In this document: positions 20,901-36,786 of the stretch, piece by piece
How the letters are laid out: each line of letters opens with the position of its first letter
Position numbering within the stretch: the stretch's first letter is position 1
Source of the DNA: Bacillota bacterium
Lineage (GTDB): Bacteria > Bacillota > Proteinivoracia > UBA4975
Direction of reading: 5' to 3'
Length of the DNA stretch: 64,000 nucleotides
NCBI GenBank assembly: GCA_012523545.1
Contig: JAAYIH010000049.1
Span: 43,841-107,840, forward strand
Notes under the pieces: generated by a model
Told to the model about the DNA's origin: nothing
Database searches by the model: none
The model's input: the letters and a program-made list of their open reading frames with translations, nothing else
Translations under genes and position numbers: made by a program

Positions 20901-21524
20901 TTGACGGAAAAAAAGCATCGCATCCCTGATGTCGTTATTCGCAGGCTTCCGGTATATCTCCGGTATTTGCAACAACTGATGAGCTATGATGTGGACACAG
21001 TATCTTCCCAGCAGATGGGCCATGATTTAAATCTTAACCCGGCTCAAATACGCAAGGACTTGTCCATTTTTGGTGATTTTGGCGTTAAGGGAATGGGTTA
21101 CCGGGTTTCCGAGCTGGCCGACAAACTTTCCAAAATCCTCGGGTTGGACAAGGAGATACCCATAGTTCTCGTGGGAGTAGGCAACCTGGGCGCCGCCCTG
21201 TGCAGGTACAACCGATATCAAAAATCTGCCACCAAAATCGTCGGCCTGTTTGACGGACATCCTGCCAAGATTGGTCAGGTGCACGGTTCCCTGGAAGTGC
21301 GGCCCATGGAAGAGTTGGTGGATTTCGTGCGCCAAAACAACATCAAGATGGCAATTATTACAGTTCCTGCCGCTGCCGCTCAATCGGTTTGCGATGCCCT
21401 GGTGGCTGCCGGCGTAAAAGCCATTTTAAATTTTGCCCCGGTACTGCTCAATGTTCCTGAGGGCGTGCGGGTTCAAAATTCAGATGTCACTGTAGAATTA
21501 CAGGCGTTGGCATACTATTTATGA
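20901..21524 (+). CDS. rex: redox-sensing transcriptional repressor Rex
   Basis: Winged-helix N-terminus PDVVIRRLPVYLRYL and an NADH-binding Rossmann fold VLVGVGNLGAAL. TTG start is 6 nt after GGAGGGA. Confidence 0.9.
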   Translation: MTEKKHRIPDVVIRRLPVYLRYLQQLMSYDVDTVSSQQMGHDLNLNPAQIRKDLSIFGDFGVKGMGYRVSELADKLSKILGLDKEIPIVLVGVGNLGAALCRYNRYQKSATKIVGLFDGHPAKIGQVHGSLEVRPMEELVDFVRQNNIKMAIITVPAAAAQSVCDALVAAGVKAILNFAPVLLNVPEGVRVQNSDVTVELQALAYYL

Positions 21525-21615
21525 GACTTTATCTTTGTGCGCAAAGCAGGATTTCACTGCTCGGCAGAGAAGTTTTATTGTGTACCTTTTCAGGATCTAA
21601 TTGAGGAGGATTGTG

Positions 21616-23031
21616 GTGGTACCTTACAGGCGTGAGCGGGACCTTCTCGGTGACCGGGAGGTTCCCCAAAATGTGTACTACGGCATTCAAACCGCCAGGG
21701 CGTTGGAGAATTTTCCCATAACCGGGTACAAGCCCCACAGGGAATTGATTATGGCCCTGGTTCAGGTGAAGAAGGCGGCAGCCCAGGCCAACATGAAGAC
21801 CAAGCGGCTCAATCCCACTACCGGCAATGCCATCGTCGCCGCCTGTGACGAAATCCTGAGCGGCGAATTGCTTGACCAGTTCGTCGTCGATGTCATTCAG
21901 GGGGGCGCCGGCACTTCACTGAACATGAATGCCAACGAAGTCATTGCCAACCGCGCCATCGAGCTCTTGGGAGGCAACAAGGGCGATTATATTCTCGTTT
22001 CGCCCAACACCCACGTCAATATGGCTCAATCTACCAATGATGTCTTTCCCACTGCAATTAAAATTGCTTCCCTCAACCTGGCCAGCTCCTTGCTTGATGC
22101 CCTGCAGAAATTGGTACAAGCCCTGCGTGCAAAGGAACAGGAGTTTGACGGCATCATTAAGATGGGGCGCACCCATCTCCAGGATGCCGTTCCCATTCGC
22201 TTGGGCCAGGAATTTGGCGCCTGGGCGTGCGCCATTGAAAGGGACATCCAGCGCATCGAAGCCGCAGCCCAGGGCATGAGGGTCATCAGCATGGGGGCAA
22301 CGGCGGTGGGAACCGGCCTCAACGCCGACGTGGAGTATATAAAACACGTTACTGAGATATTGGCCGCCAACACCGGATTGCCTTTGGAGCAGTCGAAAAA
22401 CATGGTTGATTCCACGCAAAATGCCGACGTCTACGTAACTTTGTCGGGAGCATTGAAAATCTGCGCGGTTAACCTGTCCAAGATGGCCAATGACTTGCGC
22501 CTCATGGCTTCGGGACCAAGGTGCGGCCTGAACGAAATCAACCTGCCCGCCATGCAGCCCGGTTCTTCCATTATGCCGGGCAAGGTCAACCCGGTCATGG
22601 CCGAAGTGGTCAACCAGGTGGCCTTCCAGGTAGTCGGCAACGACATGACCATTACCATGGCGGCAGAAGCCGGCCAGCTGGAGCTCAACGTCATGGAACC
22701 GGTGATGACTTTCAACCTGCTGCAGTCCCTGGATATTGTGCGCAATGTCGTCACGGTATTCACCGAAAAATGTGTCAAGGGCATTACCGCCAATGTCCAG
22801 CGCTGCCGGCAAATGGTGGAACAGAGCGTCGGCATTATAACTGCCATCAATCCCCATGTGGGTTATGAAACTGCCACCCTCATTGCCAAGGAGGCCATTA
22901 CCACCGGCCGTCCTGTGCGGGAGATCGTCCTGGAGCGGGGCATTCTCACCGAAGAGGAACTGGACATCATTCTCAATCCGCAGGAAATGACCAAACCCGG
23001 CATCGCCGGCGCCGAACTGCTTAACAAATAG
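21616..23031 (+). CDS. aspA: aspartate ammonia-lyase
   Basis: Fumarase/aspartase signature GSSIMPGKVNP. VDVIQGGAGTSLNMN matches aspartase rather than fumarase (which reads WQTGSGTQSNMN). GTG start follows GAGGAGG. Confidence 0.85.
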   Translation: MVPYRRERDLLGDREVPQNVYYGIQTARALENFPITGYKPHRELIMALVQVKKAAAQANMKTKRLNPTTGNAIVAACDEILSGELLDQFVVDVIQGGAGTSLNMNANEVIANRAIELLGGNKGDYILVSPNTHVNMAQSTNDVFPTAIKIASLNLASSLLDALQKLVQALRAKEQEFDGIIKMGRTHLQDAVPIRLGQEFGAWACAIERDIQRIEAAAQGMRVISMGATAVGTGLNADVEYIKHVTEILAANTGLPLEQSKNMVDSTQNADVYVTLSGALKICAVNLSKMANDLRLMASGPRCGLNEINLPAMQPGSSIMPGKVNPVMAEVVNQVAFQVVGNDMTITMAAEAGQLELNVMEPVMTFNLLQSLDIVRNVVTVFTEKCVKGITANVQRCRQMVEQSVGIITAINPHVGYETATLIAKEAITTGRPVREIVLERGILTEEELDIILNPQEMTKPGIAGAELLNK

Positions 23032-23103
23032 ATTTGCTGGAAATCTGCATCGTTTTCTTTTAAACTGGACAGTGTACGTAATAATTCCAAAGGGGTGATT
23101 TTC

Positions 23104-24384
23104 TTGAAGACAACCTTTCCTGGCGGCATTCATCCTCCATACAACAAAGAATTAACCGCCTCCAAAGCCATTGTGGAAATGCCCCTGCCCAAACGCGTGC
23201 GCCTTTTGTTACAGCAACACATTGGGGCGCCGTGCAAGCCCTTGGTGAAGAAGGGCGATGTGGTGACGGTGGGGCAAAAAATTGCCGACAGTGATGCATT
23301 TGTGTCGGCGCCGATTATCGCCAGCGTCGGCGGGGAAGTGGCCGCCGTGGATGCCGAGGGGATTGAAATCGTCACCGACCCCGAGCATTCCCGGTTTACC
23401 GGCCAGGCGCCTAAGTATGACACGCCCGAAGACATACGGCAAATCATCCGCGAAGCCGGAATCGTCGGGATGGGGGGAGCGGCTTTCCCTACCCATGTCA
23501 AGCTCAGCCCGCCTGAAGGCAAGGAAGTGCACACCCTGATTATTAATGGGGCTGAATGTGAACCTTATCTCAGCACCGACCACAGGGTTATGGTGGAACA
23601 GGGCGAAGAACTCATCGAAGGTATTAAGATTTTGCTCCGGGCCTGCGGGGCTCAAAAGGCCATTATCGGCATTGAAAAAAATAAGCCCGACGCCATTGAA
23701 AACCTGAGCCGCCTGTGCCGGGATGAGGAAAACATCCGGGTGGAGGCCGTCCCGGTGGTTTATCCCCAGGGCGGAGAGCGCCAGCTCATCAAGTCCTTGA
23801 CGGGCAGAGAAGTGCCGGTGGGCGGGTTGCCCCTGGATTTGGGCATCGTGGTGCAAAACGTGGCTACGGCGGTGGCTGTCCATCAGGCTGTAAACCTGGG
23901 GCGTCCCCTCATCGACCGGGTGGTTACCGTTTCCGGCCGGGGCGTCGCCGAGCCTGCCAACGTGCGCGTGCGGCTGGGAACTCCCATCAGGGACCTTATC
24001 GAATTTTGCGGCGGCATGCGGGATGATGCCGTTAAAGTGGTCAACGGCGGCCCCATGATGGGCAAGGCGGTGGCCAGTCTGGATGATCCTGTGACCAAGG
24101 GCACATCGGGAATTTTGGTGCTTACTGAAGCGGAAGTGCGCATCTATGAAGAGCGGACATGCATACGCTGCGCCCGGTGCGTTGACGCCTGCCCCATGCG
24201 GCTGATGCCCAATTACCTGGCTCTGTATTCCCGCAAGTCGATGTACAATGATGCCGAACAGATTCATTTGTTCAACTGTATTGAATGCGGCTGTTGTTCA
24301 TTTGTCTGTCCGGCCAGAATTCCCATTGTCCACTACATCCAAAAGGCGAAACATGAAATCAACAGTAAGCGGCGCAAGAAATAA
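23104..24384 (+). CDS. rnfC: Rnf electron transport complex subunit C
   Basis: N-terminal FPGGIHPPYNK and two 4Fe-4S motifs, CIRCARCVDACP and CIECGCCSFVCP. TTG start is about 8 nt after AGGGGTGA. Confidence 0.9.
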   Translation: MKTTFPGGIHPPYNKELTASKAIVEMPLPKRVRLLLQQHIGAPCKPLVKKGDVVTVGQKIADSDAFVSAPIIASVGGEVAAVDAEGIEIVTDPEHSRFTGQAPKYDTPEDIRQIIREAGIVGMGGAAFPTHVKLSPPEGKEVHTLIINGAECEPYLSTDHRVMVEQGEELIEGIKILLRACGAQKAIIGIEKNKPDAIENLSRLCRDEENIRVEAVPVVYPQGGERQLIKSLTGREVPVGGLPLDLGIVVQNVATAVAVHQAVNLGRPLIDRVVTVSGRGVAEPANVRVRLGTPIRDLIEFCGGMRDDAVKVVNGGPMMGKAVASLDDPVTKGTSGILVLTEAEVRIYEERTCIRCARCVDACPMRLMPNYLALYSRKSMYNDAEQIHLFNCIECGCCSFVCPARIPIVHYIQKAKHEINSKRRKK

Positions 24385-24412: not shown

Positions 24413-25351
24413 ATGACCGAAAAATTAAAAGTAGGACCTTCGCCGCACATTCTGGATTCCCGTTCGGTAAGCAGTATAATGTGGGACGTCGTGATCGCCC
24501 TGATTCCCGTTACCGCGGCGGCTATAATCTATTTCGGCCTCAATGCAGTTTTTATTTTGTTGGTCTCGACGTTGTCCGCCATGATCTTTGAATCCCTGGT
24601 GGTGCACAAAAGCCTTAAACCCAAAAAGGTGTTGGGAGACGGCAGCGCAGCTGTTACAGGACTTTTGCTGGGGTTGATTCTGCCGCCTTCGGCGCCGTTG
24701 TGGATGGCGGTGGTGGGCAGCGGTGTTGCCATCCTCCTGGCCAAGCAGGCCTTTGGGGGTATCGGCAACAACATCTTCAACCCCGCTTTGGTAGGCCGCG
24801 CCGTCTTGTTTATGTCCTGGCCGGTGTTGATGACCCGGTGGCACCAGCCCCTGGCCCTGGACAACTGGTTCGCCGACCTGGTCAGCGGCGCAACGCCCCT
24901 GGGCGCAGGGAGCGCAAGCCTTATTGACCTGGTGCTGGGCAATGTCGGTGGTTCCTTGGGCGAGACCTCGGTGGTTGCCATCCTGTTGGGCGGAATATAC
25001 CTTTTGCTCAAGGGGCACATCGACTGGCGTATCCCCGGCGGTTACATCGGCACTGCAGCAATCATTGCTTTGCTAACCAATCAGTTTTCGCTGGAAGCCG
25101 TGGCATTTCATATCTGCGCCGGCGGGTTGCTCTTTGGCGCTGTCTTTATGGCCACCGATATGGTTACGTCTCCCACCACCAAAGTGGGCCGCCTGCTCTT
25201 CGGAATCGGCTGCGGGCTGGTCACCATGTATGTGCGCGTGTTTGCCAGCGCTCCCGAGGGCGTAACCTATGCCATTTTGTTTATGAACGCGCTGGTTCCC
25301 TTAATTGACCGCTATACAGTGCCCAAAACCTTTGGGGAGGTGAAAAAATAA
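24413..25351 (+). CDS. rnfD: Rnf complex subunit D
   Basis: NqrB/RnfD-type polytopic membrane protein in rnfCDGEAB order. Confidence 0.9.
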   Translation: MTEKLKVGPSPHILDSRSVSSIMWDVVIALIPVTAAAIIYFGLNAVFILLVSTLSAMIFESLVVHKSLKPKKVLGDGSAAVTGLLLGLILPPSAPLWMAVVGSGVAILLAKQAFGGIGNNIFNPALVGRAVLFMSWPVLMTRWHQPLALDNWFADLVSGATPLGAGSASLIDLVLGNVGGSLGETSVVAILLGGIYLLLKGHIDWRIPGGYIGTAAIIALLTNQFSLEAVAFHICAGGLLFGAVFMATDMVTSPTTKVGRLLFGIGCGLVTMYVRVFASAPEGVTYAILFMNALVPLIDRYTVPKTFGEVKK

Positions 25352-27030
25352 TGAACTCATCCCTCAAGATGGTGGTGGTCCTCGGGCTTATCGCTTTTAT
25401 TTCGGCCGGATTGCTGGCCGGAGTAAACTATTGGACTGCACCCATTATTGAAGAAAATGCTCAGGCGCGCCTCAACGCAACCTTTTCCCGGGTAATTGAC
25501 GCCGATGAGTTTGTCGAGCCCGAGGAAGAGACTGAATTCTTCCTGCGCATAGCCAAAAAGGGCGGCGCAGTGGTGGGGTACGTGGTCAGGCTCACCGGCC
25601 AGGGGTACAGTTCCGCCGGTATCGACATCCTGGTGGGTTTAAACACCGAAGCGGAAGTCCAGGGGGTATATATTTTCAGCCATTCCGAGACCCCGGGTTT
25701 GGGCGACCGCATTACCGACCCGGCCTGGCTGAGCCAGTTTAAGGGCAAGGGAATCGACGACCCCATTGCTTCCGGTACAGACGTGGACGCGATTTCGGGA
25801 GCGACTTCATCATCGACGGCAGTCATCGGCAGCGTGCGCCGCGCCGTTCAGTTCGTGGGCGGATATCTGGGCCTCATTGAAGAGACAGAAATCGATTTTG
25901 CCCAGATTCCCGACGGCACTTACACCGGCACCGGGCGCGGCTTTGGCGGCGACGTGACGGTAGAAGTCACCTTTGCCAACGGCGAGCTCACCAAGGTCGT
26001 CATCGTCAGCCACAACGAAACCGCCGGTGTCTCCGACCCGGCCATAGAGGCCATTCCCAAAGCCATGGTGGCGGAGCAGAAAATTCAGGTGGATACAGTT
26101 TCCGGCGCCACCATGACCTCTGAGGCGATTATCGCCGCTGTCAAGGATGCCCTCAAGGAATTTGGCGGCGCAGGTCCTGCTGAGCCCATTGACATCGGCT
26201 CCCTGCTGCCCGGCACGTACACCGGATCGGCCAAGGGCCTGAAAGACGACATCACTGTGGAAGTGACTGTTTCCGGCGGCAGGATTACCAAAATCGTGGT
26301 TCTCAGCCACGACGATACTCCCGAATATGCCGAACCGGCCTTTGCATTTATGATTGACCAAATCATCGAGACCCAGGATTTGGAGGAGGTAGACTTCTAC
26401 AGCGGCGCTACTTTCTCCAGTGAAGGCCTGCTCAATGCCGTTAAGAACGCCCTCCGTTCCCAGGTCAAACTGGATATCTCCGGCTTGCCCGACGGCGTCT
26501 ATGTGGGCGAGGGAGAAGGTTTTCACGGCATTACCCGGGTCAGCTTCAGAATGGTTTCCGGGGAATTGAAGGATTTGGAAGTTCTGGAACACAACGATAC
26601 CCCCGAGTACGCCAACAAGGCCTTTGCAACTTTGATCCCCGCCATTACCGAGGCCCAGAGTCTGGAGGTCGACCTGGCCAGCGGAGCCACTTTCTCTTCC
26701 CAGGGCCTGCTGGACGCCATTATGGATGCCATTAAGAAGGGGCCTGTCCTGGATGTTTCCCAGGTTCCCGACGGAGTATACTCCGGCACCGGGGAAGGCC
26801 TTTTCGGCGGGCTCCAGGTGGAGGTCACCGTCAGCGGCGGCAAAATTACAGATATTGTCGTTGTCGACCACCAGGATACGCCGGAATACGCCAGCCTGGC
26901 TATCGACGGTATTACCAAGGCGATTCTGGACACCCAGTCCCTGGACGTCGACGTGGTATCCGGCGCAACAGGGACCAGCAGGGGCCTGTTGGAAGCCATT
27001 GAAGCAGCGCTCAAGAGCGCTGTGCAGTAG
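25351..27030 (+). CDS. rnfG: Rnf complex subunit G with four additional tandem FMN-binding domains
   Basis: Residues 1-175 form a canonical RnfG with flavinylation motif SGATSSS. Residues ~185-556 are four ~90-aa repeats (DG.Y.G.G.G...V.V.......SGAT.[TS]S), each a further FMN_bind domain. Confidence 0.9.
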   Translation: MNSSLKMVVVLGLIAFISAGLLAGVNYWTAPIIEENAQARLNATFSRVIDADEFVEPEEETEFFLRIAKKGGAVVGYVVRLTGQGYSSAGIDILVGLNTEAEVQGVYIFSHSETPGLGDRITDPAWLSQFKGKGIDDPIASGTDVDAISGATSSSTAVIGSVRRAVQFVGGYLGLIEETEIDFAQIPDGTYTGTGRGFGGDVTVEVTFANGELTKVVIVSHNETAGVSDPAIEAIPKAMVAEQKIQVDTVSGATMTSEAIIAAVKDALKEFGGAGPAEPIDIGSLLPGTYTGSAKGLKDDITVEVTVSGGRITKIVVLSHDDTPEYAEPAFAFMIDQIIETQDLEEVDFYSGATFSSEGLLNAVKNALRSQVKLDISGLPDGVYVGEGEGFHGITRVSFRMVSGELKDLEVLEHNDTPEYANKAFATLIPAITEAQSLEVDLASGATFSSQGLLDAIMDAIKKGPVLDVSQVPDGVYSGTGEGLFGGLQVEVTVSGGKITDIVVVDHQDTPEYASLAIDGITKAILDTQSLDVDVVSGATGTSRGLLEAIEAALKSAVQ

Positions 27031-27042
27031 GAGGTGGCAGCA

Positions 27043-27684
27043 ATGTCAATACTGCAAGAACTCAAACGCGGAATTTTTGCCGAAAACCCGACATTCAGGC
27101 TGATGTTGGGGATGTGCCCCACCCTGGCTGTGACCACCCTGGCCGTCAACGGCGTGGGCATGGGCCTGGCTACCACTGCAGTGCTGTTGGGCTCCAACCT
27201 GGTTGTCTCAGCCCTGAAAAACGTCATACCCAACCAGGTGCGCATTCCCAGTTTCATCGTAATCATCGCCACATTTGTCACCGTGGTTTCCCTGTTGCTG
27301 GAAGCTTTTGCCTATTCGCTCTATGAAGCTTTGGGCATTTTTCTGCCCCTCATCGTGGTCAACTGTATTATCCTGGGCCGGGCCGAAGCTTATGCCTCCA
27401 AGCACTCATTGGGCAAATCGGCACTGGACGCCCTGGGCATTGGCCTGGGCTTTACCCTCAGCCTTACCGTGCTGGGCGCCATCCGGGAATTCCTGGGTGC
27501 CGGCACCGTCTTTGGCCTGCAGGTGCTGAGCGAAAGTGCTGATATGGCGACAATTTTTTCCCTGCCTCCCGGCGCCTTTATAACCCTTGGGCTGATGATG
27601 GCTCTCATAAACGGCCTTACTGCCCGGCGCGGCAAGCGCTCTGTCGCCCGCAGGAACCCGGCAGTGGCCAAGAGGGAGGGTTAA
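27043..27684 (+). CDS. rnfE: Rnf complex subunit E
   Basis: NqrD/RnfE family. ATG is 7 nt after GGAGGTG. Confidence 0.9.
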   Translation: MSILQELKRGIFAENPTFRLMLGMCPTLAVTTLAVNGVGMGLATTAVLLGSNLVVSALKNVIPNQVRIPSFIVIIATFVTVVSLLLEAFAYSLYEALGIFLPLIVVNCIILGRAEAYASKHSLGKSALDALGIGLGFTLSLTVLGAIREFLGAGTVFGLQVLSESADMATIFSLPPGAFITLGLMMALINGLTARRGKRSVARRNPAVAKREG

Positions 27685-27691
27685 GCAAGCG

Positions 27692-28258
27692 ATGGAACTG
27701 TTTATGATCTTCTTTGGCGCAATTTTCTTCAACAACTTTGTCCTCAACAGGTTCCTGGGCATCTGCCCCTTCCTGGGCGTGTCCAAGCGCATTGAAACTT
27801 CGGTTGGCATGGGCATGGCTGTTGCCTTCGTCATGACCCTGGCATCGGTCATGACCTGGTTGCTCCAGGGCCTGCTCCTCAACCCGCTGGGACTGGGTTA
27901 CCTGCAGACCATTGTTTTCATCCTGGTCATCGCGGCCCTGGTCCAGTTTGTGGAGATGTTCATGCAGAAGGTCAGCCCCACATTGCACAAAGCCCTGGGC
28001 GTGTATCTGCCCCTGATTACCACCAACTGCGCCATCCTGGGGATTGCCATCCTCAACATCGACTATAAGTACAACCTGGTGGAGACCATTGTGCATTCCC
28101 TGGGCGCCGCCATCGGCTTTACGCTGGCCCTGGTCATGCTGGCCGGAATCCGCGAAAAACTTGAAATCAACGATGTTCCAGATGCCTTTGCCGGTGTTCC
28201 CATCGCCCTCATCACCGCTGGGATCCTGGCCCTGGCTTTCTCTGGCTTCGTCCTTTAG
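27692..28258 (+). CDS. rnfA: Rnf complex subunit A
   Basis: NqrE/RnfA family membrane protein. Confidence 0.9.
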   Translation: MELFMIFFGAIFFNNFVLNRFLGICPFLGVSKRIETSVGMGMAVAFVMTLASVMTWLLQGLLLNPLGLGYLQTIVFILVIAALVQFVEMFMQKVSPTLHKALGVYLPLITTNCAILGIAILNIDYKYNLVETIVHSLGAAIGFTLALVMLAGIREKLEINDVPDAFAGVPIALITAGILALAFSGFVL

Positions 28259-28269
28259 GGGTGGATAAG

Positions 28270-29073
28270 ATGGAATTTCTTGTGGAAATAATCAAACCGG
28301 TCCTGAGCTTGACGGTCCTGGCCGTGGTGTTTGGCGGCATCCTGGCCTGGGCGGACAAAGTTTTCGCCGTCAAGAAGGACCCCCGGGTCGATGAAATCAT
28401 CGAGGTTCTGCCCGGGGCCAACTGCGGCGCCTGCGGGTATGCCGGCTGCGCCGCCTTCGCCGAAGCCGTTGCCAAAGGCGAGGCCCCAGTCAACGGTTGT
28501 CCCGTGGGCAGGCAGAAGGTTGCCGACGAAATCGCCAAAATCATGGGCGTTTCCGCCGCCTGCGACGACGAGTGTCTCAAAGCGCGCCTGGTTTGCCAGG
28601 GCAGCGACGATGTCGCCAAGACAAAGATGATCTACCACGGCATCGATGACTGCCGGGCGGCAGTGTTGCTGCACGGCGGCGACAAAACCTGTCCCTACGG
28701 TTGCCTGGGCCTCGGCACCTGCGTACGGGTATGTCCTTTTGACGCAATTTCCATGGGCGACAACGGCCTGCCCGTCATCGACGCCGGGTTGTGCACCGGG
28801 TGCAACAAATGCCGGGACGCCTGTCCCAAGGGAGTAATCCGGATGGTGCCTGAGGGTTCGGCCGTGCTGGTGGCGTGCAACTCCCACGACAAGGGAGCGG
28901 CAGTGGTTAAGGCGTGCAAGGTCGGTTGCATTGCCTGCGGCAAATGCGTTAAGGTTTGTCCCGAAGACGCCATCGCCCTGGTCGACAACCTGGCGGTTAT
29001 AGACCCCGCCAAGTGCACCAATTGCGGTGCCTGCGTCGAAGCCTGTCCTACCAAGGCCATAATTCGTTTGTAA
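28270..29073 (+). CDS. rnfB: Rnf complex subunit B (polyferredoxin)
   Basis: N-terminal TM helix, CGACGYAGC cluster, and several CxxCxxCxxxCP 4Fe-4S motifs. Confidence 0.9.
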   Translation: MEFLVEIIKPVLSLTVLAVVFGGILAWADKVFAVKKDPRVDEIIEVLPGANCGACGYAGCAAFAEAVAKGEAPVNGCPVGRQKVADEIAKIMGVSAACDDECLKARLVCQGSDDVAKTKMIYHGIDDCRAAVLLHGGDKTCPYGCLGLGTCVRVCPFDAISMGDNGLPVIDAGLCTGCNKCRDACPKGVIRMVPEGSAVLVACNSHDKGAAVVKACKVGCIACGKCVKVCPEDAIALVDNLAVIDPAKCTNCGACVEACPTKAIIRL

Positions 29074-29139: not shown

Positions 29140-29625
29140 ATGAACGTCCTGGCGCTGTTTGTCCTTATCCTTTCGGTTTTTTGGCTGGTCATTGCCGGTT
29201 TTTCGCTCCAGAGCGCAGCGGTGGGGCTAATGACAATACTGTTTGTGGTTTGGTGGAACCGGGACCTTTTGCGCACGCTGATCCGGGGCAAAGTGTCGCT
29301 GCCCGGCAAAAAGATGCTGATTTTGGCTGGCTATTTTTTCAGTCTCCTCTGGCAGATTGTGCTGGCCAACATCCAGGTGGCCAGGATCCTCCTCAGCCGG
29401 AAAATGCCCCTGCAACCTGTGGTTGTGACCTTTAACCCCGGTCTTTCCAGCGACCTGAGCAAGACGGTGCTGGCCAATTCCATTACCCTCACCCCCGGCA
29501 CCCTGACTCTGGCTGTGGAGGGCGATGAATTCACCGTTCATACCCTGACCCTTTCCGCTGCCCAGGATGTGGTGGACTGGCCGCTGATCAACCTGTTGCG
29601 CCGCCTGGAGGGGGAAAGAGAATGA
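29140..29625 (+). CDS. mnhE: Na+/H+ antiporter subunit E (MrpE/MnhE; MbhA-like)
   Basis: MnhE family. ATG is 6 nt after AAAGGAGAAGG. Confidence 0.85.
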   Translation: MNVLALFVLILSVFWLVIAGFSLQSAAVGLMTILFVVWWNRDLLRTLIRGKVSLPGKKMLILAGYFFSLLWQIVLANIQVARILLSRKMPLQPVVVTFNPGLSSDLSKTVLANSITLTPGTLTLAVEGDEFTVHTLTLSAAQDVVDWPLINLLRRLEGERE

Positions 29626-29888
29626 TGACGGAATTTTTTTTGGGGGTTTGCGTTGCTCTCATCGCCCTGACCTTTGCCTGCATGGCCCGGGCGGCTGTGG
29701 GGCCGACGGCTATGGACCGGCTGATGGCCATAAATATCATCGGCACCAAGACAGTGGCAATTATATGCGTTATCTCTCTGGTCTTTAATGAGGATTTTTT
29801 TCTGGATGTGGCCATCGTCTACGCCCTGATCAGTTTTTTGACGACCATAGCTGTGGCAAAATACCTGCAGACCGGGTCTCTGTTTTAG
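29622..29888 (+). CDS. mnhF: Na+/H+ antiporter subunit F (MrpF)
   Basis: 88 aa with 3 TM helices, MrpF-like. Start overlaps the mnhE stop. Confidence 0.85.
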   Translation: MMTEFFLGVCVALIALTFACMARAAVGPTAMDRLMAINIIGTKTVAIICVISLVFNEDFFLDVAIVYALISFLTTIAVAKYLQTGSLF

Positions 29889-29900
29889 GGGGTGAACCGG

Positions 29901-30227
29901 GTGAAGGATATCGTCGTCGTTATATTGATGGTTGCCGGCACCTTTTTCTTTGCCATGGGGACATTGGGCTTGTGGCGTTTCCCCGATGTGTTTTCCCGGG
30001 CCCACGCCTCCACCAAATGCGATACGTTGGGGTGCGGCCTGATCTTGCTGAGCATGGTTGTGCGGTCGGGATTTTCACTGGCCAGCCTTAAGATGCTGCT
30101 CATTATCGGTTTCATATGGCTGACCAATGCTACCGCCGCTCATGTCATCGGCAACACTGCCCTGAAGCAGGGCTATCCCATGCTCAAGGAAACCCGCACC
30201 TGGATATACCGGGGCAGGGGGGAATGA
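29901..30227 (+). CDS. mnhG: Na+/H+ antiporter subunit G (MrpG)
   Basis: MrpG family. GTG start follows AGGGGGTGA. Confidence 0.85.
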   Translation: MKDIVVVILMVAGTFFFAMGTLGLWRFPDVFSRAHASTKCDTLGCGLILLSMVVRSGFSLASLKMLLIIGFIWLTNATAAHVIGNTALKQGYPMLKETRTWIYRGRGE

Positions 30228-30230
30228 ACA

Positions 30231-30473
30231 GTGTTACAGGCGCTGAATGCTTTGCTGTTGCTGTTTCTGATAGTCTGTGCCGTGGTGGTGGCCCGGACCA
30301 GGGATCTGCTCAGCGCTGCCGTAATCTTTGCCGCCTATTCATTGGTTATGGCCATTATTTGGCAACAATTGAAGGCGCCTGATCTGGCCATTACCGAGGC
30401 TGCCATTGGCGCGGGGGTTACCACTGTCCTGTTGCTGGTGGTAATCAGCAAGACCGGGAGGCATGAAGAATGA
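30231..30473 (+). CDS. small MnhB/MrpA-C-terminal-related membrane protein (MbhD-like)
   Basis: 80 aa with 3 TM helices, in the position of MbhD in Mbh-type modules. Confidence 0.6.
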   Translation: MLQALNALLLLFLIVCAVVVARTRDLLSAAVIFAAYSLVMAIIWQQLKAPDLAITEAAIGAGVTTVLLLVVISKTGRHEE

Positions 30474-30754
30474 GGGTTGCCCTGACCACCGTTGTTCTGG
30501 TCGCCATTGGCGTCATATTGGTGATGATGGTTGCGGAAATGCCCGAATTTGGCGCCGGGAAACCGGCAAGCAATGAAGTATCCGCCCACTACGTGAAAAA
30601 TGCCGTTAAAGAAACGGGCGCCAGCAATTTTATTGCGGCCATTATCCTGGATTACCGCGCGTACGATACATTGGGCGAAGTAATAGTTCTTTTTGCGGGT
30701 ATTGCCGCGGTGTTGGTTGTTCTGGATGTGCACAAAGGCGGGAGAGGGCGATAA
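30470..30754 (+). CDS. small MnhB-related membrane protein (MbhE-like)
   Basis: 94 aa, hydrophobic, translationally coupled to its neighbours. Confidence 0.6.
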   Translation: MRVALTTVVLVAIGVILVMMVAEMPEFGAGKPASNEVSAHYVKNAVKETGASNFIAAIILDYRAYDTLGEVIVLFAGIAAVLVVLDVHKGGRGR

Positions 30755-30755
30755 G

Positions 30756-31193
30756 ATGCAGAGCGTCGTGCTGCAGACGGTGATAAAGCTGTTGTTGCCT
30801 TTTATCCAGGTTTATGGATTGTATATTATATTCCATGGCCACATTTCCCCCGGCGGCGGTTTTGCCGGCGGGGCGGTGATGGCCGCCAGCTTTGTGCTTT
30901 TTGCCATGAGTTATGGCGTCGGTGAAGGCTTTAAGCGCCTGCCGCGGCTGATCGCCCAGTGGCTGGAGTCCCTGGGCGGCCTGATTTACATCGCGCTGGG
31001 GCTGACGGGCATATTGCGCGGCGCTGCGTTCCTGACCAATGTGCCTGAATGGCTGGGACAAGCCGGTCAGTTGTTCAGCGCCGGGCTCATCCCTCTGCTG
31101 ACCACGGCAATCGGCTTAAAGGTGTGCAGTACCATTGTCACCCTGCTCTATCATTTGCTGGAGGAAGGTCATTATGATAGCCAAACTGATTAG
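30756..31193 (+). CDS. mnhB: Na+/H+ antiporter subunit B (MrpB)
   Basis: Conserved HGHISPGGGFAGG motif. ATG follows GGGAGAGGG. Confidence 0.8.
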   Translation: MQSVVLQTVIKLLLPFIQVYGLYIIFHGHISPGGGFAGGAVMAASFVLFAMSYGVGEGFKRLPRLIAQWLESLGGLIYIALGLTGILRGAAFLTNVPEWLGQAGQLFSAGLIPLLTTAIGLKVCSTIVTLLYHLLEEGHYDSQTD

Positions 31194-31536
31194 CAATATG
31201 CACTTTCTCACAGCCATGGTTCTCTTCCTCATCGGTTTCCATACCATGCTCACCCATTCCAATCTCATTAAGAAGGTTATGGGCATGAATATAATGGAAA
31301 CGGGTATATTTTTGTTTTTCATCTCCGTGGGCTATGTCCGGGGCGGCAGTTCGCCCATTGCTGTTCCGGGGGCAGAAGGTTATATAAATCCTCTGCCTTC
31401 GGCGCTGATCCTTACCGGCATAGTGGTCAGTGTCAGTCTTACGGCCTTCGCTCTGGCGCTGATTGTCAAACTGTATAATTATTACGGAACCGTGGATGCC
31501 GATAAGATAATGCAGCTGAGGGGAGGAGAAGAATGA
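31174..31536 (+). CDS. mnhC: Na+/H+ antiporter subunit C (MrpC, NuoK-like)
   Basis: NuoK/MrpC family. ATG is 5 nt after GGAGGAAGG. Confidence 0.85.
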   Translation: MIAKLISNMHFLTAMVLFLIGFHTMLTHSNLIKKVMGMNIMETGIFLFFISVGYVRGGSSPIAVPGAEGYINPLPSALILTGIVVSVSLTAFALALIVKLYNYYGTVDADKIMQLRGGEE

Positions 31537-33008
31537 ATCACCTTCCCGTTTTGCTGGTCGCTTTGTACCTGGCTGCGGCCCTGGGATTGCCCTTGTTGGG
31601 GCGCAACAAAAAATTCCCGGCCGGCTTGTTTGCCGTCGGAGTTGCCGGTTGCGGCCTTATCCTGGCGGCGGCGTCGGCCTGGCATGTGGCCGGGACGGGG
31701 ACATACAGTTATTTCCCCGGCGGCCACCAGGCTCCGCTGGGCATTGAAATCACCATTGATTGGGTGACGGTATTCTTGCACCTCACCATCAATCTGCTGG
31801 CCGTGCTGGTGCTTATTTACAGTACCGCCGACCTCAGCCGCGAGCTTGGAGGCGGCCGGGCCAAGACCTGGTATTATTCCCTCTTTTTCCTGCTCCTGGC
31901 CGCTTTAAACGGTATAGTAATGGCCTTTGACCTCTTCAACATTTTCGTTTTTACCGAAATTGGCACCATTGCTGCCTGCGCCCTGGTGGCCATCAGGCCC
32001 AAACGCCTGTGCGTGGAGGCCGCCTTTAAGTACCTGGTTTTGAGTGCCCTGGGCTCAGGGATGGTGTTGCTGGGAATCGGCTTGCTTTATATGGTGACGG
32101 GTTATTTGAACATAGGCGCCATGGCACAGGCGTTGCCCAAAGCCTTTGCCATGTATCCCTGGAACGTACTCGTCGCCTTGTCCCTCTTTGTAATCGGCCT
32201 GGGCACCAAGGCGGCGCTGTTTCCGTTGCATGTGTGGCTGCCCGACGCCCACTCGTCGGCGCCCACGCCGTCCAGCGCCGCTCTCTCAGGGCTGGTCATC
32301 AAGGTCTACGCCGTGGCCATGGCCAGAATTATTTTCCAGGCTTACGGCGCCGAGCTGTTTTCCCGCATTCCCGTTCCCGATGTAATTCTCGTCTTTTCCA
32401 CGGCGGGGATTTTCGCCGGTTCGGTGCTGGCCATAGGCCAAACGGACATTAAGCGAATGTTGGCTTATTCCAGCGTGGCGCAAATTGGATACATCTTTCT
32501 GGGCTTCGCCCTGGTCACCATGAACGGAATAGTGGGCGGAATCCTGCACATCTTTTGCCACGCTGTGATGAAATCCCTCTTGTTTCTTGCTGCAGGAGCA
32601 ATTATATTTAAGACAGGCATCCGCAAAATCGAAGACCTGGCCGGCATGGGTTACCGCATGCCGCTGACTATGGCGGCGTTCAGCATCGGTGCTCTGTCCA
32701 TGGTGGGGATACCGGGATTCAGCGGATTTATCAGCAAGTATTACCTGGCATTCGGCGCCCTGGCAGCTGACAGGCCAGTGTATGTAGCTGTGATACTGCT
32801 CAGCAGCCTGCTCAATGCCGTGTATTTCTTCCCCATTGTGGTGCGCGCCTTTTTTGGCCATAAGGAGAAGCAAATGACCTGGGACCGGTTGCCCTGGGCG
32901 ATGACGGTTCCCATGGTGGTTTTGGCTGCACTCACTGTTATTTTGGGCATATTGCCCGGCGGCCTGGTGCGCATTGCGGAACTGGCGGCCGGCGCATGGC
33001 TGAATTGA
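31533..33008 (+). CDS. mnhD: antiporter-like subunit MrpD (NuoN/NuoM-like)
   Basis: 491 aa proton-pumping-type subunit with the ALFPLHVWLPDAHSSAPTPSSA motif. Confidence 0.85.
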   Translation: MNHLPVLLVALYLAAALGLPLLGRNKKFPAGLFAVGVAGCGLILAAASAWHVAGTGTYSYFPGGHQAPLGIEITIDWVTVFLHLTINLLAVLVLIYSTADLSRELGGGRAKTWYYSLFFLLLAALNGIVMAFDLFNIFVFTEIGTIAACALVAIRPKRLCVEAAFKYLVLSALGSGMVLLGIGLLYMVTGYLNIGAMAQALPKAFAMYPWNVLVALSLFVIGLGTKAALFPLHVWLPDAHSSAPTPSSAALSGLVIKVYAVAMARIIFQAYGAELFSRIPVPDVILVFSTAGIFAGSVLAIGQTDIKRMLAYSSVAQIGYIFLGFALVTMNGIVGGILHIFCHAVMKSLLFLAAGAIIFKTGIRKIEDLAGMGYRMPLTMAAFSIGALSMVGIPGFSGFISKYYLAFGALAADRPVYVAVILLSSLLNAVYFFPIVVRAFFGHKEKQMTWDRLPWAMTVPMVVLAALTVILGILPGGLVRIAELAAGAWLN

Positions 33009-33025
33009 CTGGAGGCGAATGGATC

Positions 33026-34513
33026 ATGAACAGCGTTTATAATTACCTTCCCCTGTGGGCTACGCTGTTTCCCGTACTGGCTACTGTGCCCCTCTTTTTT
33101 GTTGAGCGGCGTTCCGCCAAAATACGGGACGTGTTTGCCCAGGCAGTAACGGGCATAACTTTGCTGTTAGTGGCGTTGATGTACCCCTATGTCCGCGACC
33201 ACGGGGTCATTGGCGTGTCCTACCCGGGCATACTGCCCCCTTTTGGCATATCTTTCCGGGCTGATATCCTTGGCTTTATGCTGGCCCTGATTGCTGCGGC
33301 GGTCTGGTTTTTGGCCACAGTCTATTCCAAGGTTTATATAGGGCACGAGGGGGGAGGAAACCGGTATTACCCCTTTTTGTTGCTGAGCCTGGGCGGCTGC
33401 CTGGGCGTGTTCCTCACCGGCGATTTCTTCAGCCTTTTTGTCTTTTTTGAGTTGATGTCCCTGGCCTCATACGTGCTGGTTGTCCATGAGGAGAGCGACG
33501 CCGCCATTGCGGCGGGGTACAAGTACCTGATTCTCACACTGATCGGCGGCCTCGCCCTGTTTTTTGGCATCGTCATTGCTTTCGAAGTGGCCGGCAACGT
33601 CGACATCGCGCCAGGGAATTTGTTGTTTGCCGAGCCCAATCGCCTGTCCTTTATTGCTTTTCTGGCCTTTCTGGTGGGCTTTGGGATGAAAATGGGCATA
33701 TTTCCCATGCATGTCTGGCTGCCCGACGCCCACCCCGTGGCCCCGTCGCCGGCCAGCGCCCTGTTGTCGGGCGTAATGCTCAAAACCGGTGCGTACGGAA
33801 TGATCCGGGTGGTATACAACGTATATGGTCCGGAATTGATTGCCGCTGCCGGCTGGGACACCATCCTGCTGGTCCTGGCCGGGATAACGATTTTCCTGGG
33901 CTCTGCGGTGGCTATTGCCCAGACCGACATCAAACGGCGCCTGGCCTATTCCAGCATCGGGCAAATGGGTTATGTGCTCCTGGGTATTGCCCTGCTCACT
34001 GAAAACGGCTTGACGGGCACTACTTTTCATATCTTTTCCCATGCCATGATGAAATCAACTTTGTTCCTGGCGGCGGGGGCAATCATATTCAAGACGGGTA
34101 CGCGGAAAATCAAAGAGATGGCCGGCATCGGCTTCAAAATGCCCGTTACCCTTGGCTGCTTTACTCTGGCTGCCCTGGCCATGATTGGCATACCGCCCCT
34201 CAACGGCTTTATCAGCAAGCTGATTTTGTCCATGGGCGCGCTGGATGCCGGCAAGCCTGCCTTTGTTTTCCTGCTCATCCTGAGCAGCCTGATGAACGGG
34301 ATATACTACCTGCCCATTATCATCAGCGCCTTTTTCGGCGTCAAAAAGGAAGAGCGCAAATGGAGCCGGGCTTTTTCGGAGCTCAAGCCTTCCATGTGGA
34401 TTCCCATTGCGGTTCTGGCGGCATCGTGTCTGGTCTTTGGCCTGTTGCCCATAAATCTGCCTTTGAAATGGGCGCAAATTGCTGCCAAAGCTCTGCTGGG
34501 AGCTGGTAATTGA
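33026..34513 (+). CDS. second antiporter-like subunit (MrpD/NuoM-like paralog)
   Basis: Motif IFPMHVWLPDAHPVAPSPASA. Start ATG at 33026, with 32996 as an alternative. Confidence 0.85.
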   Translation: MNSVYNYLPLWATLFPVLATVPLFFVERRSAKIRDVFAQAVTGITLLLVALMYPYVRDHGVIGVSYPGILPPFGISFRADILGFMLALIAAAVWFLATVYSKVYIGHEGGGNRYYPFLLLSLGGCLGVFLTGDFFSLFVFFELMSLASYVLVVHEESDAAIAAGYKYLILTLIGGLALFFGIVIAFEVAGNVDIAPGNLLFAEPNRLSFIAFLAFLVGFGMKMGIFPMHVWLPDAHPVAPSPASALLSGVMLKTGAYGMIRVVYNVYGPELIAAAGWDTILLVLAGITIFLGSAVAIAQTDIKRRLAYSSIGQMGYVLLGIALLTENGLTGTTFHIFSHAMMKSTLFLAAGAIIFKTGTRKIKEMAGIGFKMPVTLGCFTLAALAMIGIPPLNGFISKLILSMGALDAGKPAFVFLLILSSLMNGIYYLPIIISAFFGVKKEERKWSRAFSELKPSMWIPIAVLAASCLVFGLLPINLPLKWAQIAAKALLGAGN

Positions 34514-36786
34514 TGAGCGCTGAAGCCCTGATTCTGGCCGCCATATTAACCGCCCTGGCCGGGGGGGTAATTACCTTCCTTTTTCCCGTCCACAGCCGCA
34601 GGCTGGCGGGAATAATTAACCTGGCGGTTACAGCTCTCAGTTTTTTGCTGGTGGCCGCAGCCTGGTTTGGCTTCAGACACAGTGTGGAATTTTCCTTGCC
34701 CGGGTTTTTGTACCTGGGTTTATCCTTTCAGCTCAATGCATTAACGGCGTTTTTTGCCCTGCTCTTTGCGGGCGCCTGGGTTGCGGCATCCATTTACAGT
34801 TTGCAGTACATGGAGCACGAGGATAACCAGCGCCGGTTCTATGCATTCTTGCAACTGACTTTGGCCGGCTGCCTTGGGGTGGTCCTGGCGGCAGATTTGC
34901 TGACCCTGTTCCTCTTTTTCGAAATGATGACCTTTTGTTCCTGGGTCCTGGTCCTCCACCAGGAAAACCGGGATGCCATGGAAGCCGGCAACCTCTATCT
35001 CTACTTGGGAGTTATCGGCGGCCTGGTTCTGCTGATGGGGGTGTTTTTGCTCTATCATGCCGCCGGTTCGGTGGCGTTTGCCGCCATTCCCGGCGCTGTG
35101 GCACAAAACCCTCGACTGATGATTGCCATGGGCATCTGCTTTTTGATTGGCTTTGGCATCAAGGCCGGGATGGTCCCGCTGCATATTTGGCTGCCCAAGG
35201 CCCACCCTGTGGCGCCTACGCCTGCCAGCGCCCTCTTGTCAGGCATCATGATTAAGACTGGGGCATACGGCCTGTTGCGGGTCTTTTATTCCATACTCGC
35301 TCCGGCCGCCAATAAAGGCCTTGCGGGAGCGGTGTTCGGCGTCGTGTTTTTGTGGCTGGGCCTGCTCACCATGTTGCTGGGTGCATTCCTGGCCCTGCAG
35401 CAGCGCCAGGCCAAGCGCACTTTGGCATACAGCAGCGTCAGCCAGATAGGCTACATCATCATGGGGCTGGGGGCGGCCCTGCTCCCGGCGGGCAAGGATT
35501 TGTACGGCATATCGGGCATGCTTTTCCACATTCTCAACCACGCCGTGTTCAAAACCACTTTGTTTATGTGCGTCGGGGCAATATATGTGTACACCCATAC
35601 CCTTGAGTACGACCATTTGGGCGGTTTGGGCCGTAAGTACCCCGGGGTGCTGGTTCCCTTTGCCGTTGCCGCACTGGGCATTGCCGGCGCGCCCGGTTTT
35701 AACGGTTACGCCAGCAAGACTTTTCTCCACCATGCCTTGACCGACCTCTATCACTACCAGCCTTCGTGGTGGCTGTGGCTGGCCGAAAAGCTCTTTGTTG
35801 TGGCCAGCGCCCTGACCATATGTTACTTTATCAAGCTGTTTGTCAACCTTTTCCTCGGTGAGAAGGACTGGAGCCATCTTCCCGACCGCATGGCGCCTGC
35901 CTTGCAAATTCCCCTGTGGCTCGGCGCTGCAACTGTCGCCACCATCGGTCTCTTCCCGCACCGGGTTGTACGCGCCCTGATTATTCCCGCAATGGATGTC
36001 CTGGGCTTTGATGCCGGGGCCCTGGACTATGTTGCACATATTAACGTGTGGAACTGGCACGATGTCTGGGGAATGGCGATTACGGCGGCGGTGGCGGGGG
36101 TAATTTTGCTCCTGATTTATAAGTTTAAGATTGACTCCCTGGTTTTTCCGCGCTGGCTCAGCGTGGAAAAAATGGTCTACCGGCCGTTGGCAAGGGGCTT
36201 TATGTGGCTTTGTCTGAGGCCAGGGGTCAATGCGGACAGCATGGTCAACCGGCTTTACCACGGTGCGGGAGACTGGTCCATGGCTCTTTTCCGCCTTGTG
36301 ACCAAGGTGGATGAGACCACCGACAAGGCCTATCGCAGCGCAGGGGACTTGTCCCTGGCCCTTTTTGGCCTGGTAACCAAAGTGGACCAATCTGCCGACA
36401 TGGCCTACCGCACAATGGGCGAGTTCTTCGCCCTGGTCTGCCGTGCCGCCGGTTTTGTGGATAAAGGCACCAACAGCGCTTATGTGCTCCTGGGCAAAGG
36501 AACCAGACAGGCATGTATAAGTCTCGATCGCCTGGACCAGGACCTGGACGCATTATACAAGGGACTGGGGCTGGTATATACCCGTGCTGCCAGCAAACTG
36601 GATCTGGTGGAACGCAAAGCGTCCGGACCACTGCCCAAGAAGCGGCCGGCGCCGGACTGGCTGAAAAATTTGCAAACAGCCCTGGCCAAACCGGCCTGGA
36701 ACATTTCCAACTTGAATGTCGAAGCTATTGTGGTTGCCGGTGCTTTGCTGGTGGTGGCAATAATCCTGATATTTTACAGCCGCTGA
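34510..36786 (+). CDS. NuoL/MrpA-like antiporter subunit with about 250-aa C-terminal extension and terminal TM helix
   Basis: A NuoL-type core (motif VPLHIWLPKAHPVAPTPASA) is followed by two TM helices, then a long hydrophilic stretch with three ~20-aa repeats (..LVTKVD...D.AYR..G...A..) and a terminal TM helix. Confidence 0.85.
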   Translation: MMSAEALILAAILTALAGGVITFLFPVHSRRLAGIINLAVTALSFLLVAAAWFGFRHSVEFSLPGFLYLGLSFQLNALTAFFALLFAGAWVAASIYSLQYMEHEDNQRRFYAFLQLTLAGCLGVVLAADLLTLFLFFEMMTFCSWVLVLHQENRDAMEAGNLYLYLGVIGGLVLLMGVFLLYHAAGSVAFAAIPGAVAQNPRLMIAMGICFLIGFGIKAGMVPLHIWLPKAHPVAPTPASALLSGIMIKTGAYGLLRVFYSILAPAANKGLAGAVFGVVFLWLGLLTMLLGAFLALQQRQAKRTLAYSSVSQIGYIIMGLGAALLPAGKDLYGISGMLFHILNHAVFKTTLFMCVGAIYVYTHTLEYDHLGGLGRKYPGVLVPFAVAALGIAGAPGFNGYASKTFLHHALTDLYHYQPSWWLWLAEKLFVVASALTICYFIKLFVNLFLGEKDWSHLPDRMAPALQIPLWLGAATVATIGLFPHRVVRALIIPAMDVLGFDAGALDYVAHINVWNWHDVWGMAITAAVAGVILLLIYKFKIDSLVFPRWLSVEKMVYRPLARGFMWLCLRPGVNADSMVNRLYHGAGDWSMALFRLVTKVDETTDKAYRSAGDLSLALFGLVTKVDQSADMAYRTMGEFFALVCRAAGFVDKGTNSAYVLLGKGTRQACISLDRLDQDLDALYKGLGLVYTRAASKLDLVERKASGPLPKKRPAPDWLKNLQTALAKPAWNISNLNVEAIVVAGALLVVAIILIFYSR

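Follow-up and report, generated by a model that had tools for sequence, protein, structure and literature searches.

A five-domain RnfG in a complete rnf operon

The 64,000-nucleotide stretch of DNA analysed here (contig JAAYIH010000049.1, positions 43,841 to 107,840; hereafter the window) comes from an uncultured anaerobe of the Bacillota and carries a complete rnfCDGEAB operon, whose rnfG gene encodes a protein with four flavin mononucleotide (FMN)-binding domains in addition to the canonical one. The gene lies between rnfD and rnfE, its ATG overlapping the TAA stop of rnfD by 1 nt, and a ribosome-binding site (GGAGGTG) is found approximately 8 nt 5' of the start. The product is a cysteine-free protein of 58.4 kDa with an isoelectric point (pI) of 4.27. 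The full-length sequence scored above the cut-off of the rnfG family model TIGR01947 (149.8 bits versus 102), as did residues 1–184 alone (103.1 bits), and residues 3–169 aligned with the entire solved RnfG chain 7zc6_G, including its transmembrane anchor, its stalk helix, its alpha/beta FMN domain and the threonine of the SGAT motif (phmmer E-value 4.3e-20; Foldseek E-value 4.8e-08, target template modelling (TM) score 0.71). Three further solved RnfG chains, 8rb8_G, 8ahx_G and 9eri_G, were also matched. On the basis of the family score, the position between rnfD and rnfE and the sequence and fold match to solved RnfG, we conclude that the protein is the RnfG of a complete ferredoxin:NAD+ oxidoreductase (RnfCDGEAB). 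The original prediction, made from the nucleotide sequence, had described this open reading frame (ORF) as a canonical RnfG extended by four additional FMN-binding domains; its start, stop and length were as claimed (Table 1) and the Pfam, TIGR01947 and fold matches agree on its domain content.

RnfG contains one hydrophobic segment, located at the N-terminus (aa 1–28), and no second one in the rest of the protein. In the AlphaFold2 model this region belongs to a long N-terminal helix (aa 3–48) which aligns to the transmembrane and stalk parts of 7zc6_G. Judging from the orientation of the solved RnfG structures, all of the sequence that follows the transmembrane helix would lie outside the cytoplasm.

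Three other assignments were rejected. The score against the PplA family model (NF041941) was 30.5 bits for a cut-off of 325, RnfG lacks cysteine, and ndh2, eetAB and dmkA genes were not found in the window. The score for NqrC (TIGR01938) was 57.6 bits for a cut-off of 144, and the neighbouring genes encode Rnf-type RnfC and RnfB rather than NqrA/F. Finally, a cytochrome-type protein, either MmcA-like or similar to the cytochrome-bearing RnfG of the Christensenellales, needs CXXCH motifs, and RnfG has no cysteine. In all features that its sequence allows to be checked, the protein agrees with the RnfG family and with the multi-flavinylated class of extracytosolic proteins.

Each additional domain retains a predicted flavinylation site

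The Pfam family FMN_bind (PF04205) matched RnfG in five separate stretches (whole-protein E-value 9.4e-80), here termed D1 for the canonical domain and R2 to R5 for the additional ones. The hidden Markov model (HMM) envelopes of the latter cover aa 179–274, 278–373, 372–464 and 465–559, within approximately 20 bases of the DNA coordinates first proposed for the four repeats. When each segment was scanned alone, all of them passed the gathering cut-off of 22 bits, with scores of 42.7 to 70.2 bits (Table 1). The five threonine motifs, DAISGATSSS, DTVSGATMTS, DFYSGATFSS, DLASGATFSS and DVVSGATGTS, had been quoted exactly in the original prediction; they place the predicted acceptor threonines at residues 152, 254, 354, 447 and 540, and the ApbE recognition motif Dxx[S/T]GA[S/T] was found in 5/5 domains. 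The best sequence match of R5 was domain 1 of CbFMN4 (crystal structure 8p2b, E-value 4e-11). One repeat of the RnfG model superimposed on 8p2b with a Foldseek TM score of 0.87–0.88 and a root-mean-square deviation (rmsd) of 1.3–1.7 Å, and the repeats also matched domain 2 of SaFMN3 (8p2a) both in sequence and in fold.

In pairwise local alignments R2–R5 share 35–54% identity, 27–44 standard deviations above shuffled sequences, and D1 shares 26–40% identity with the repeats, 5.5–11 standard deviations above shuffles. At the DNA level the repeats are only 52–62% identical to one another, indicating that the duplications are old and ruling out a mis-assembly. A recent tandem duplication or an assembly artefact was likewise rejected on the strength of this low DNA identity together with the presence of an identical RnfG protein on 23 contigs of independent assemblies, drawn from JGI, Logan and elsewhere.

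Conservation was followed in an alignment of 19 sequences, comprising the window RnfG and 18 five-domain orthologs that are 50–69% identical to it. The ApbE motif was kept at the five positions, the exceptions being Thr/Ser or flanking Ser/Thr/Ala swaps and two single deviations. The motif threonine of R2 was invariant (19/19 sequences); the R3 motif was kept in 19/19, with serine replacing threonine in one; and the R4 motif was kept in 18/19, one ortholog displaying DAVTDAT, in which the threonine is retained and the glycine replaced. Mean identity among orthologs was 71% for D1, 61% for R2, 58% for R3, 54% for R5 and 51% for R4. Domain-by-domain BLAST revealed that, in both the five-domain group and the sister group with four, each domain is orthologous to the one at the same position (d1 with d1, d2 with d2 and so forth), and an ortholog of R2 was recognisable in every RnfG-type relative tested, RnfD-RnfG fusions included. 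The retention of the motif across old, diverged repeats argues for selection on flavin binding in each domain. Since the repeats match CbFMN4 and SaFMN3, and since an apbE gene whose product has a signal-like N-terminus is part of the same gene string, flavinylation of the five predicted sites is credible.

An extended RnfG is standard in this lineage

The valyl-tRNA synthetase (ValRS) encoded in the window places the organism in an uncultured Bacillota group, approximately 30 relatives showing 69–80% identity; by the same protein the nearest named cultured organisms, at approximately 60% identity, are Anaerobranca californiensis, Alkalicella caledoniensis, Proteinivorax hydrogeniformans and Ca. 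Contubernalis alkaliaceticus. With RnfG and ValRS matches paired by the length of their contigs, genomes with 75–80% ValRS identity carry a five-domain RnfG and those with 73% identity a four-domain one, and the number of FMN domains in RnfG is three in A. californiensis, four in Anaerobranca gottschalkii and four in Proteinivorax tanatarense. RnfG has five domains in 18/18 of the orthologs taken, the syntenic sister group has four, and Anaerobranca and Proteinivorax have three or four; an extended RnfG is therefore standard in this lineage. The original prediction had implied that such an extended RnfG is rare and had named its being the normal form across the clade as a ground for refutation; this is what the phyletic check found, and the implied rarity does not hold. 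We conclude that this lineage, which includes cultured species, inherits the multi-FMN RnfG vertically as a stable trait.

GTDB genomes were also scanned with a single peptide pattern, which yielded a biased sample of at least 80 loci from species-level genomes, the window's own species not being among them. For the 80 loci listed, the median length of the RnfG ORF was 201 aa, and most displayed one SGAT-type motif, with two motifs in five loci and four in one. Within this biased sample, these values indicate that multi-domain RnfG is a minority overall. A search with the N-terminal module of RnfG was evaluated for the best 150 representatives of 50%-identity clusters, 115 of which begin with this module; the FMN domain was matched in at least two places in 114 of these 115 and in at least five places in 39, with a maximum of ten. 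The ranking of the 150 representatives by summed score favours multi-domain proteins, and these counts show diversity rather than frequency.

Other architectures were observed alongside. P0041 (952 aa), P0072 (766 aa) and P0080 (768 aa) are RnfD-RnfG fusions whose RnfG part carries four to six FMN_bind domains, and the precomputed Pfam list of P0072 and of the related P0076 includes TonB_C (PF03544). P0122 (1154 aa) begins with an RnfG-like module and has nine FMN-domain matches; 13 and 14 FMN-domain stretches, respectively, are present in P0121 (1636 aa) and P0233 (1853 aa), also among the representatives.

The rnf operon belongs to a conserved gene string

The operon (23095–29073) has the order rnfC-D-G-E-A-B with all genes on the forward strand, rnfB being located three genes 3' of rnfG. 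It forms part of a longer string, rex, aspA, rnfCDGEAB, Mrp and apbE, which opens with rex and spans 20901–37887 (Table 1). RnfD carries an SGAT flavinylation motif of its own at residues 166–169 (Thr169; context DNWFADLVSGATPLGAGS). The Mrp genes called on contigs identical to the window correspond to MNHE, MrpF, MnhG, MbhD, MbhE, MnhB, Oxidored_q2 and three Proton_antipo_M, and in the window itself the ORF at 34510–36786 matches Proton_antipo_M. The ApbE protein begins with the hydrophobic, signal-like sequence MDCAARKLYAAVAILALLLSPGC, and its gene is situated 9.8 kb 3' of rnfG on the same strand.

Table 1. Genes of the rex-aspA-rnf-mrp-apbE string and features of RnfG, in window coordinates. 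Bit scores of the FMN domains are those of each segment scanned alone against FMN_bind.
Feature	Coordinates	Strand	Evidence or remarks
rex, redox-sensing repressor	20901..21524	+	NCBIfam NF003995, 272.9 bits (cut-off 126); Pfam Put_DNA-bind_N and CoA_binding
aspA, aspartate ammonia-lyase (aspartate to fumarate and NH3)	21601..23031	+	TIGR00839 equivalog, 696.3 bits (cut-off 681.2)
rnfC, NADH/FMN and Fe-S subunit	23095..24384	+	Pfam RnfC_N, Complex1_51K, SLBB, Fer4
rnfD	24413..25351	+	Pfam NQR2_RnfD_RnfE, E 1.9e-112
rnfG	25351..27030	+	559 aa; ATG at 25351, stop included at 27030; FMN_bind in five stretches
RnfG transmembrane helix	25369..25425	+	approximately aa 7-25; sole Kyte-Doolittle window >1.6 in RnfG
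D1, canonical RnfG FMN domain	25552..25866	+	Thr152 codon 25804-25806; 61.4 bits
R2, first additional FMN domain	25885..26172	+	Thr254 codon 26110-26112; 70.2 bits
R3, second additional FMN domain	26182..26463	+	Thr354 codon 26410-26412; 65.9 bits
R4, third additional FMN domain	26464..26742	+	Thr447 codon 26689-26691; 42.7 bits
R5, fourth additional FMN domain	26743..27027	+	Thr540 codon 26968-26970; 59.9 bits
rnfE	27034..27684	+	Pfam Rnf-Nqr, E 2e-64
rnfA	27692..28258	+	Pfam Rnf-Nqr, E 1.7e-60
rnfB, poly-ferredoxin subunit	28261..29073	+	Pfam FeS and several Fer4; TIGR01944, 128.5 bits (cut-off 68.7)
Mrp-type multisubunit cation/proton antiporter, approximately ten genes	29140..36786	+	directly after rnfB
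apbE, FAD:protein FMN transferase	36817..37887	+	Pfam ApbE, E 3.6e-86

In the five relatives examined, rex lies 5' of aspA-rnf. The rex-aspA-rnf core was present in all related loci examined, namely a five-domain locus (L089), the four-domain sister locus (L085), A. gottschalkii (L087) and P. tanatarense (L088), and in each of them aspA lies directly 5' of rnfC. As a rule, though not without exception, the Mrp block and apbE accompany the core in these loci: apbE ends the string in L089 and is found near rnfB in L088, the P. tanatarense locus has no Mrp block, and the string rex, aspA, rnfCDGEAB, Mrp, apbE is kept from the window lineage to A. gottschalkii. No mention of this string was found in the accessible parts of the literature on multi-flavinylated proteins. 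The constant aspA-rnf pairing suggests a link of aspartate/fumarate metabolism to Rnf. The conserved aspA also hints at fumarate as an electron sink, which we consider a lead only; no fumarate reductase was seen and AspA itself is cytoplasmic. Anaerobranca species are reported to reduce fumarate, thiosulfate, sulfur or Fe(III), which would fit. A search for Rex operators with TTGTGAAnnnnTTCACAA, allowing up to three mismatches, returned two matches where 2.2 are expected, that is the chance level, one of them being located between rex and aspA.

The loci differ in detail. In the four-domain sister locus (L085 12628–16660, contig k141_380449) the gene following rnfA encodes a 98-aa RnfB fragment consisting of the FeS domain alone, only two large antiporter-like subunits are left of the Mrp cluster, and apbE does not come after it; either the Rnf of this genome is degenerate or remodelled, or a deletion has occurred. 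NuoE-like and NuoF-like genes and a gene for a large protein are located directly 5' of rex in three loci (L087 594–5095, L088 809–5303 and L089 982–5452). The large gene encodes one 894-aa product with no recorded Pfam match in L087 and L088, and is split in L089 (353 and 532 aa), where it carries Fer2/NADH-G and molybdopterin domains and resembles an NAD-linked formate dehydrogenase. The window is without this NuoE/NuoF/formate-dehydrogenase-like block, its place being taken by tetratricopeptide repeat and polysaccharide deacetylase genes.

The other genes annotated in the window encode housekeeping functions (Lon, HprK, ValRS, FolC-like, MreBC, PBP2, RodA, Obg and others) and sarcosine-oxidase-like flavoproteins. 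A cluster of flavoprotein oxidoreductases, all scoring below family cut-offs, was observed at 8340–9938, 10396–11484 and 12226–13395; it includes a DAO-family protein with a Rieske [2Fe-2S] domain fused at the C-terminus, as well as proteins resembling sarcosine oxidase alpha and beta. An ORF of 477 aa at 6859–8292 (+) gave no Pfam and no NCBIfam match, and another of 258 aa at 19263–20039 (+), also without Pfam match, has a conserved position 5' of the polysaccharide deacetylase gene in related contigs.

A proposed flavin side branch on the outer face of Rnf

The globular domain of RnfG is described as a mobile switch that carries one electron at a time from the RnfA/E [2Fe-2S] cluster to the RnfD FMN (PMC12174285), and the model for Acetobacterium woodii couples Na+ release to electron transfer from [2Fe-2S] to FMN(G) (PMC11889175). 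Following the published Rnf structures, D1, which is also the best-conserved domain, would keep this normal role, swinging between the RnfA/E [2Fe-2S] cluster and the RnfD FMN at the outer turn of the U-shaped ferredoxin-to-NAD+ path. R2–R5 would carry four more covalent FMNs, exchanging electrons with the D1 flavin by hopping and domain motion, and would form a side branch reaching approximately 10 nm into the periplasm-like space or the cell wall. The branch would meet a partner outside the cytoplasm, either giving or taking electrons, which may be a soluble flavin, a quinone, a metal or a flavinylated reductase. Ferredoxin-derived electrons leaving at FMN(G) would still drive ion pumping, because Na+ release is coupled to the [2Fe-2S]-to-RnfG flavin step and would precede their exit, by analogy with the Rnf-MmcA system. 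At a midpoint potential like that of SaFMN3, which is -184 mV (PMC10339131), suitable acceptors would be flavins, quinones, Fe(III) or fumarate. We consider this explanation as a whole, with D1 canonical and R2–R5 forming a flavin side branch of the Rnf G subunit to an outside partner, to be somewhat probable.

The structure models are informative on the possible geometry of such a branch. The AlphaFold2 model of full-length RnfG reached a predicted local distance difference test (pLDDT) of 78 and a predicted TM score (pTM) of 0.41, with confident domains and low-confidence D1–R2 and R2–R3 linkers, and R3–R5 modelled alone reached a pLDDT of 87.6 and a pTM of 0.64 with no weak linker. The weak D1–R2 and R2–R3 linkers, together with the better-defined R3–R5 part, suggest that the protein is hinged close to the membrane and stiffer farther out, with a semi-rigid distal rod carried on flexible hinges.

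Several observations weigh against a function as a wire. The annotation of the window, which comprised approximately 40 ORFs across 64 kb and a six-frame scan with an FMN-domain HMM built from the five RnfG domains, revealed no candidate acceptor, no secreted reductase and no second FMN_bind protein. As no acceptor gene was found in the window, a connection of Rnf through a flavin chain to an acceptor in the periplasm or outside the cell remains a plausible proposal. AlphaFold surveys describe most multi-FMN proteins of this type as strings of beads whose domains make few contacts with one another (PMC11334425), and a wire is not obvious from such a modelled layout. Attached to the swinging D1, an appendage of 40 kDa might moreover hinder the normal turnover of Rnf. 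P0074 (L086 10001–13392) resembles RnfG, with an anchor at the N-terminus and three FMN domains, and is encoded alone, outside any rnf operon, with genes for a response regulator and for a PAS histidine kinase directly 3' of it; since it stands apart from an rnf operon, the FMN module does not need Rnf. A literature search found no experimental study of a multi-FMN RnfG, and one on the Rnf of Anaerobranca found no experimental work.

A bolder proposal, which we put forward as tentative, is that the flavin chain makes Rnf a Na+/H+-pumping ferredoxin (or NADH):extracytosolic-acceptor oxidoreductase and a quinone- and cytochrome-free respiratory chain, kept as a module with aspA, Mrp and ApbE across a proteolytic/alkaliphilic Bacillota lineage, and that its length (three, four or five flavins) is tuned to envelope thickness. 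In one version of this proposal, aspartate-derived fumarate, external Fe(III), humics or flavins would be reduced at the outer face with electrons that exit from the RnfG flavin, while pumping at the [2Fe-2S]-to-FMN(G) step continues. If the side branch exists, Rnf would not be only a closed ferredoxin:NAD+ loop but also an entry to haem-free, quinone-free, energy-conserving extracellular electron transfer in some Gram-positive anaerobes, with consequences for the reduction of iron and humics, for digester syntrophy and for bioelectrochemistry. The existence of cultured carriers (A. gottschalkii, A. californiensis and P. tanatarense) makes the branch hypothesis testable by genetic and biochemical means.

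Alternative roles for the additional domains

The flavin chain could instead serve for electron uptake. An outside donor, be it reduced shuttles, a partner cell or a hydrogenase or formate dehydrogenase of the periplasm, would supply electrons that pass through the RnfG flavin to NAD+, or to ferredoxin at the cost of the ion gradient. Rnf is reversible (PMC12174285), MmcA is proposed to be bidirectional in Methanosarcina, and the Mrp antiporter beside rnf would help to manage the ion gradient in either direction. The relatives with a NuoE/NuoF-like and molybdopterin (formate-dehydrogenase-like) block just 5' of rex-aspA-rnf would also fit, but the NADH modules of this block are of the cytoplasmic type and the window does not contain it. 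The neighbouring genes encode no outside donor enzyme, and the direction of flow is not readable from sequence; we consider electron uptake unlikely.

Equally unlikely in our estimation is a role as a redox buffer, in which the four additional flavins would store up to eight electrons beside the RnfG flavin and smooth the flow or set the redox state of the switch, with no dedicated partner. Such a role agrees with the absence of a partner gene in the window and in the flanks of five related loci, and with the lower conservation of the additional domains as compared to D1 (51–61% versus 71%), which is expected for domains having no specific docking surface. However, the positional order of the domains and their stepwise growth along the lineage fit selection for reach better than selection for capacity. 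Exposed reduced flavins would also leak electrons to any oxidant, making a pure store hard to maintain, and reduced SaFMN3 indeed reacts with O2 (PMC10339131).

The same consumption of O2 by reduced SaFMN3 (PMC10339131) would fit a protective sink, in which flavins facing outward would transfer electrons, delivered by Rnf from NADH or ferredoxin, without specificity to O2 or reactive oxidants at the cell surface and shield a strict anaerobe when it meets oxygen; the position of the operon after rex, which would tie its expression to the NADH/NAD+ balance, is also in line with it. Against this stand the lack of superoxide- or peroxide-detoxifying genes in the string, the chance level of the Rex operator match 5' of aspA (three mismatches), and the fact that flavin autoxidation yields peroxide and superoxide, a poor defence outside the cell. 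We regard a protective sink as very unlikely.

The weakest and least probable alternative is a non-redox extension, R2–R5 remaining unflavinylated in vivo and acting as a spacer or cell-wall anchor: the acidic, cysteine-free repeats (pI 4.0–4.5) could be a plain stalk, but the ApbE motif with its acceptor Thr/Ser is kept in essentially every ortholog domain while the surroundings have diverged to approximately 50%, CbFMN4 and SaFMN3 with the same fold are flavinylated (PMC10339131), and a Pfam scan of RnfG detected no cell-wall-binding domain. The other alternatives are not separable by sequence.

Comparison with known systems

The flavin side branch of Rnf that we favour can be set against several described proteins. 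The canonical RnfG proteins of Clostridium tetanomorphum (7ZC6 chain G), A. woodii (9ERI chain G) and Azotobacter vinelandii (8AHX chain G) are 187–237 aa long and carry one FMN, and the 2025 review of Rnf and Nqr lists one FMN per RnfG with no mention of multi-FMN forms (PMC12174285). The window RnfG runs on for 390 residues past the part aligned with 7zc6_G and has four more FMN sites.

CbFMN4 and SaFMN3 were found to carry four and three covalent FMNs, respectively, one in each domain, when co-expressed with ApbE (Tong et al., BBA Adv 2023, PMC10339131). The RnfG repeats share with them (8P2B and 8P2A) the same small fold (TM score 0.83–0.88, rmsd 1.3–1.8 Å, 30–40% identity) and a head-to-tail domain arrangement. 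The secreted CbFMN4 and SaFMN3 differ from RnfG in standing outside the Rnf complex and in lacking an RnfG-type first domain.

In the flavin-based extracellular electron transfer (EET) of Listeria, PplA is a two-FMN lipoprotein whose tandem domains are flavinylated by ApbE/FmnB and which passes electrons to outside acceptors; it is fed from demethylmenaquinone via Ndh2 and EetA/B. The likeness to PplA lies in an extracytosolic protein with tandem FMN_bind domains, whereas the window RnfG has no lipobox cysteine and would be fed by the Rnf complex, the genes of the EET locus not being found in the window.

MmcA, which holds several cofactors and is located on the outer side of the membrane, is a functional analogue. 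This multihaem c-type cytochrome lets the Rnf of Methanosarcina acetivorans pass ferredoxin-derived electrons to methanophenazine or to extracellular acceptors (PMC6703419, PMC12174285). MmcA differs from RnfG in using haem rather than FMN and in being a separate, archaeal polypeptide with no sequence relationship to RnfG.

The closest precedents are those of Méheust et al. (eLife 2021, PMC8238504), who report 2081 extracytosolic proteins with more than one FMN_bind domain and up to 13 sites, describe "multi-flavinylated RnfGs" and propose a second electron path to extracytosolic acceptors. Both the protein class and the idea of a branch were thus already published in 2021 and there is little that is conceptually new here. 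What is added is the conserved rex-aspA-rnf-mrp-apbE module, the stepwise series of three, four and five domains and the cultured carriers. The window RnfG resembles the RnfGs of that study in having more than one FMN_bind domain on an extracytosolic subunit encoded in an rnf cluster with RnfB. Both share the proposed function, namely a second route for electrons to other acceptors outside the cytosol, in analogy to multihaem cytochromes. Unlike the Christensenellales subset described there, the window protein has no cytochrome domain (no cysteine); compared to the RnfGs of that study as a whole, it is a member from an uncultured Bacillota lineage, with exactly five domains and encoded within the rex-aspA-rnf-mrp-apbE string.

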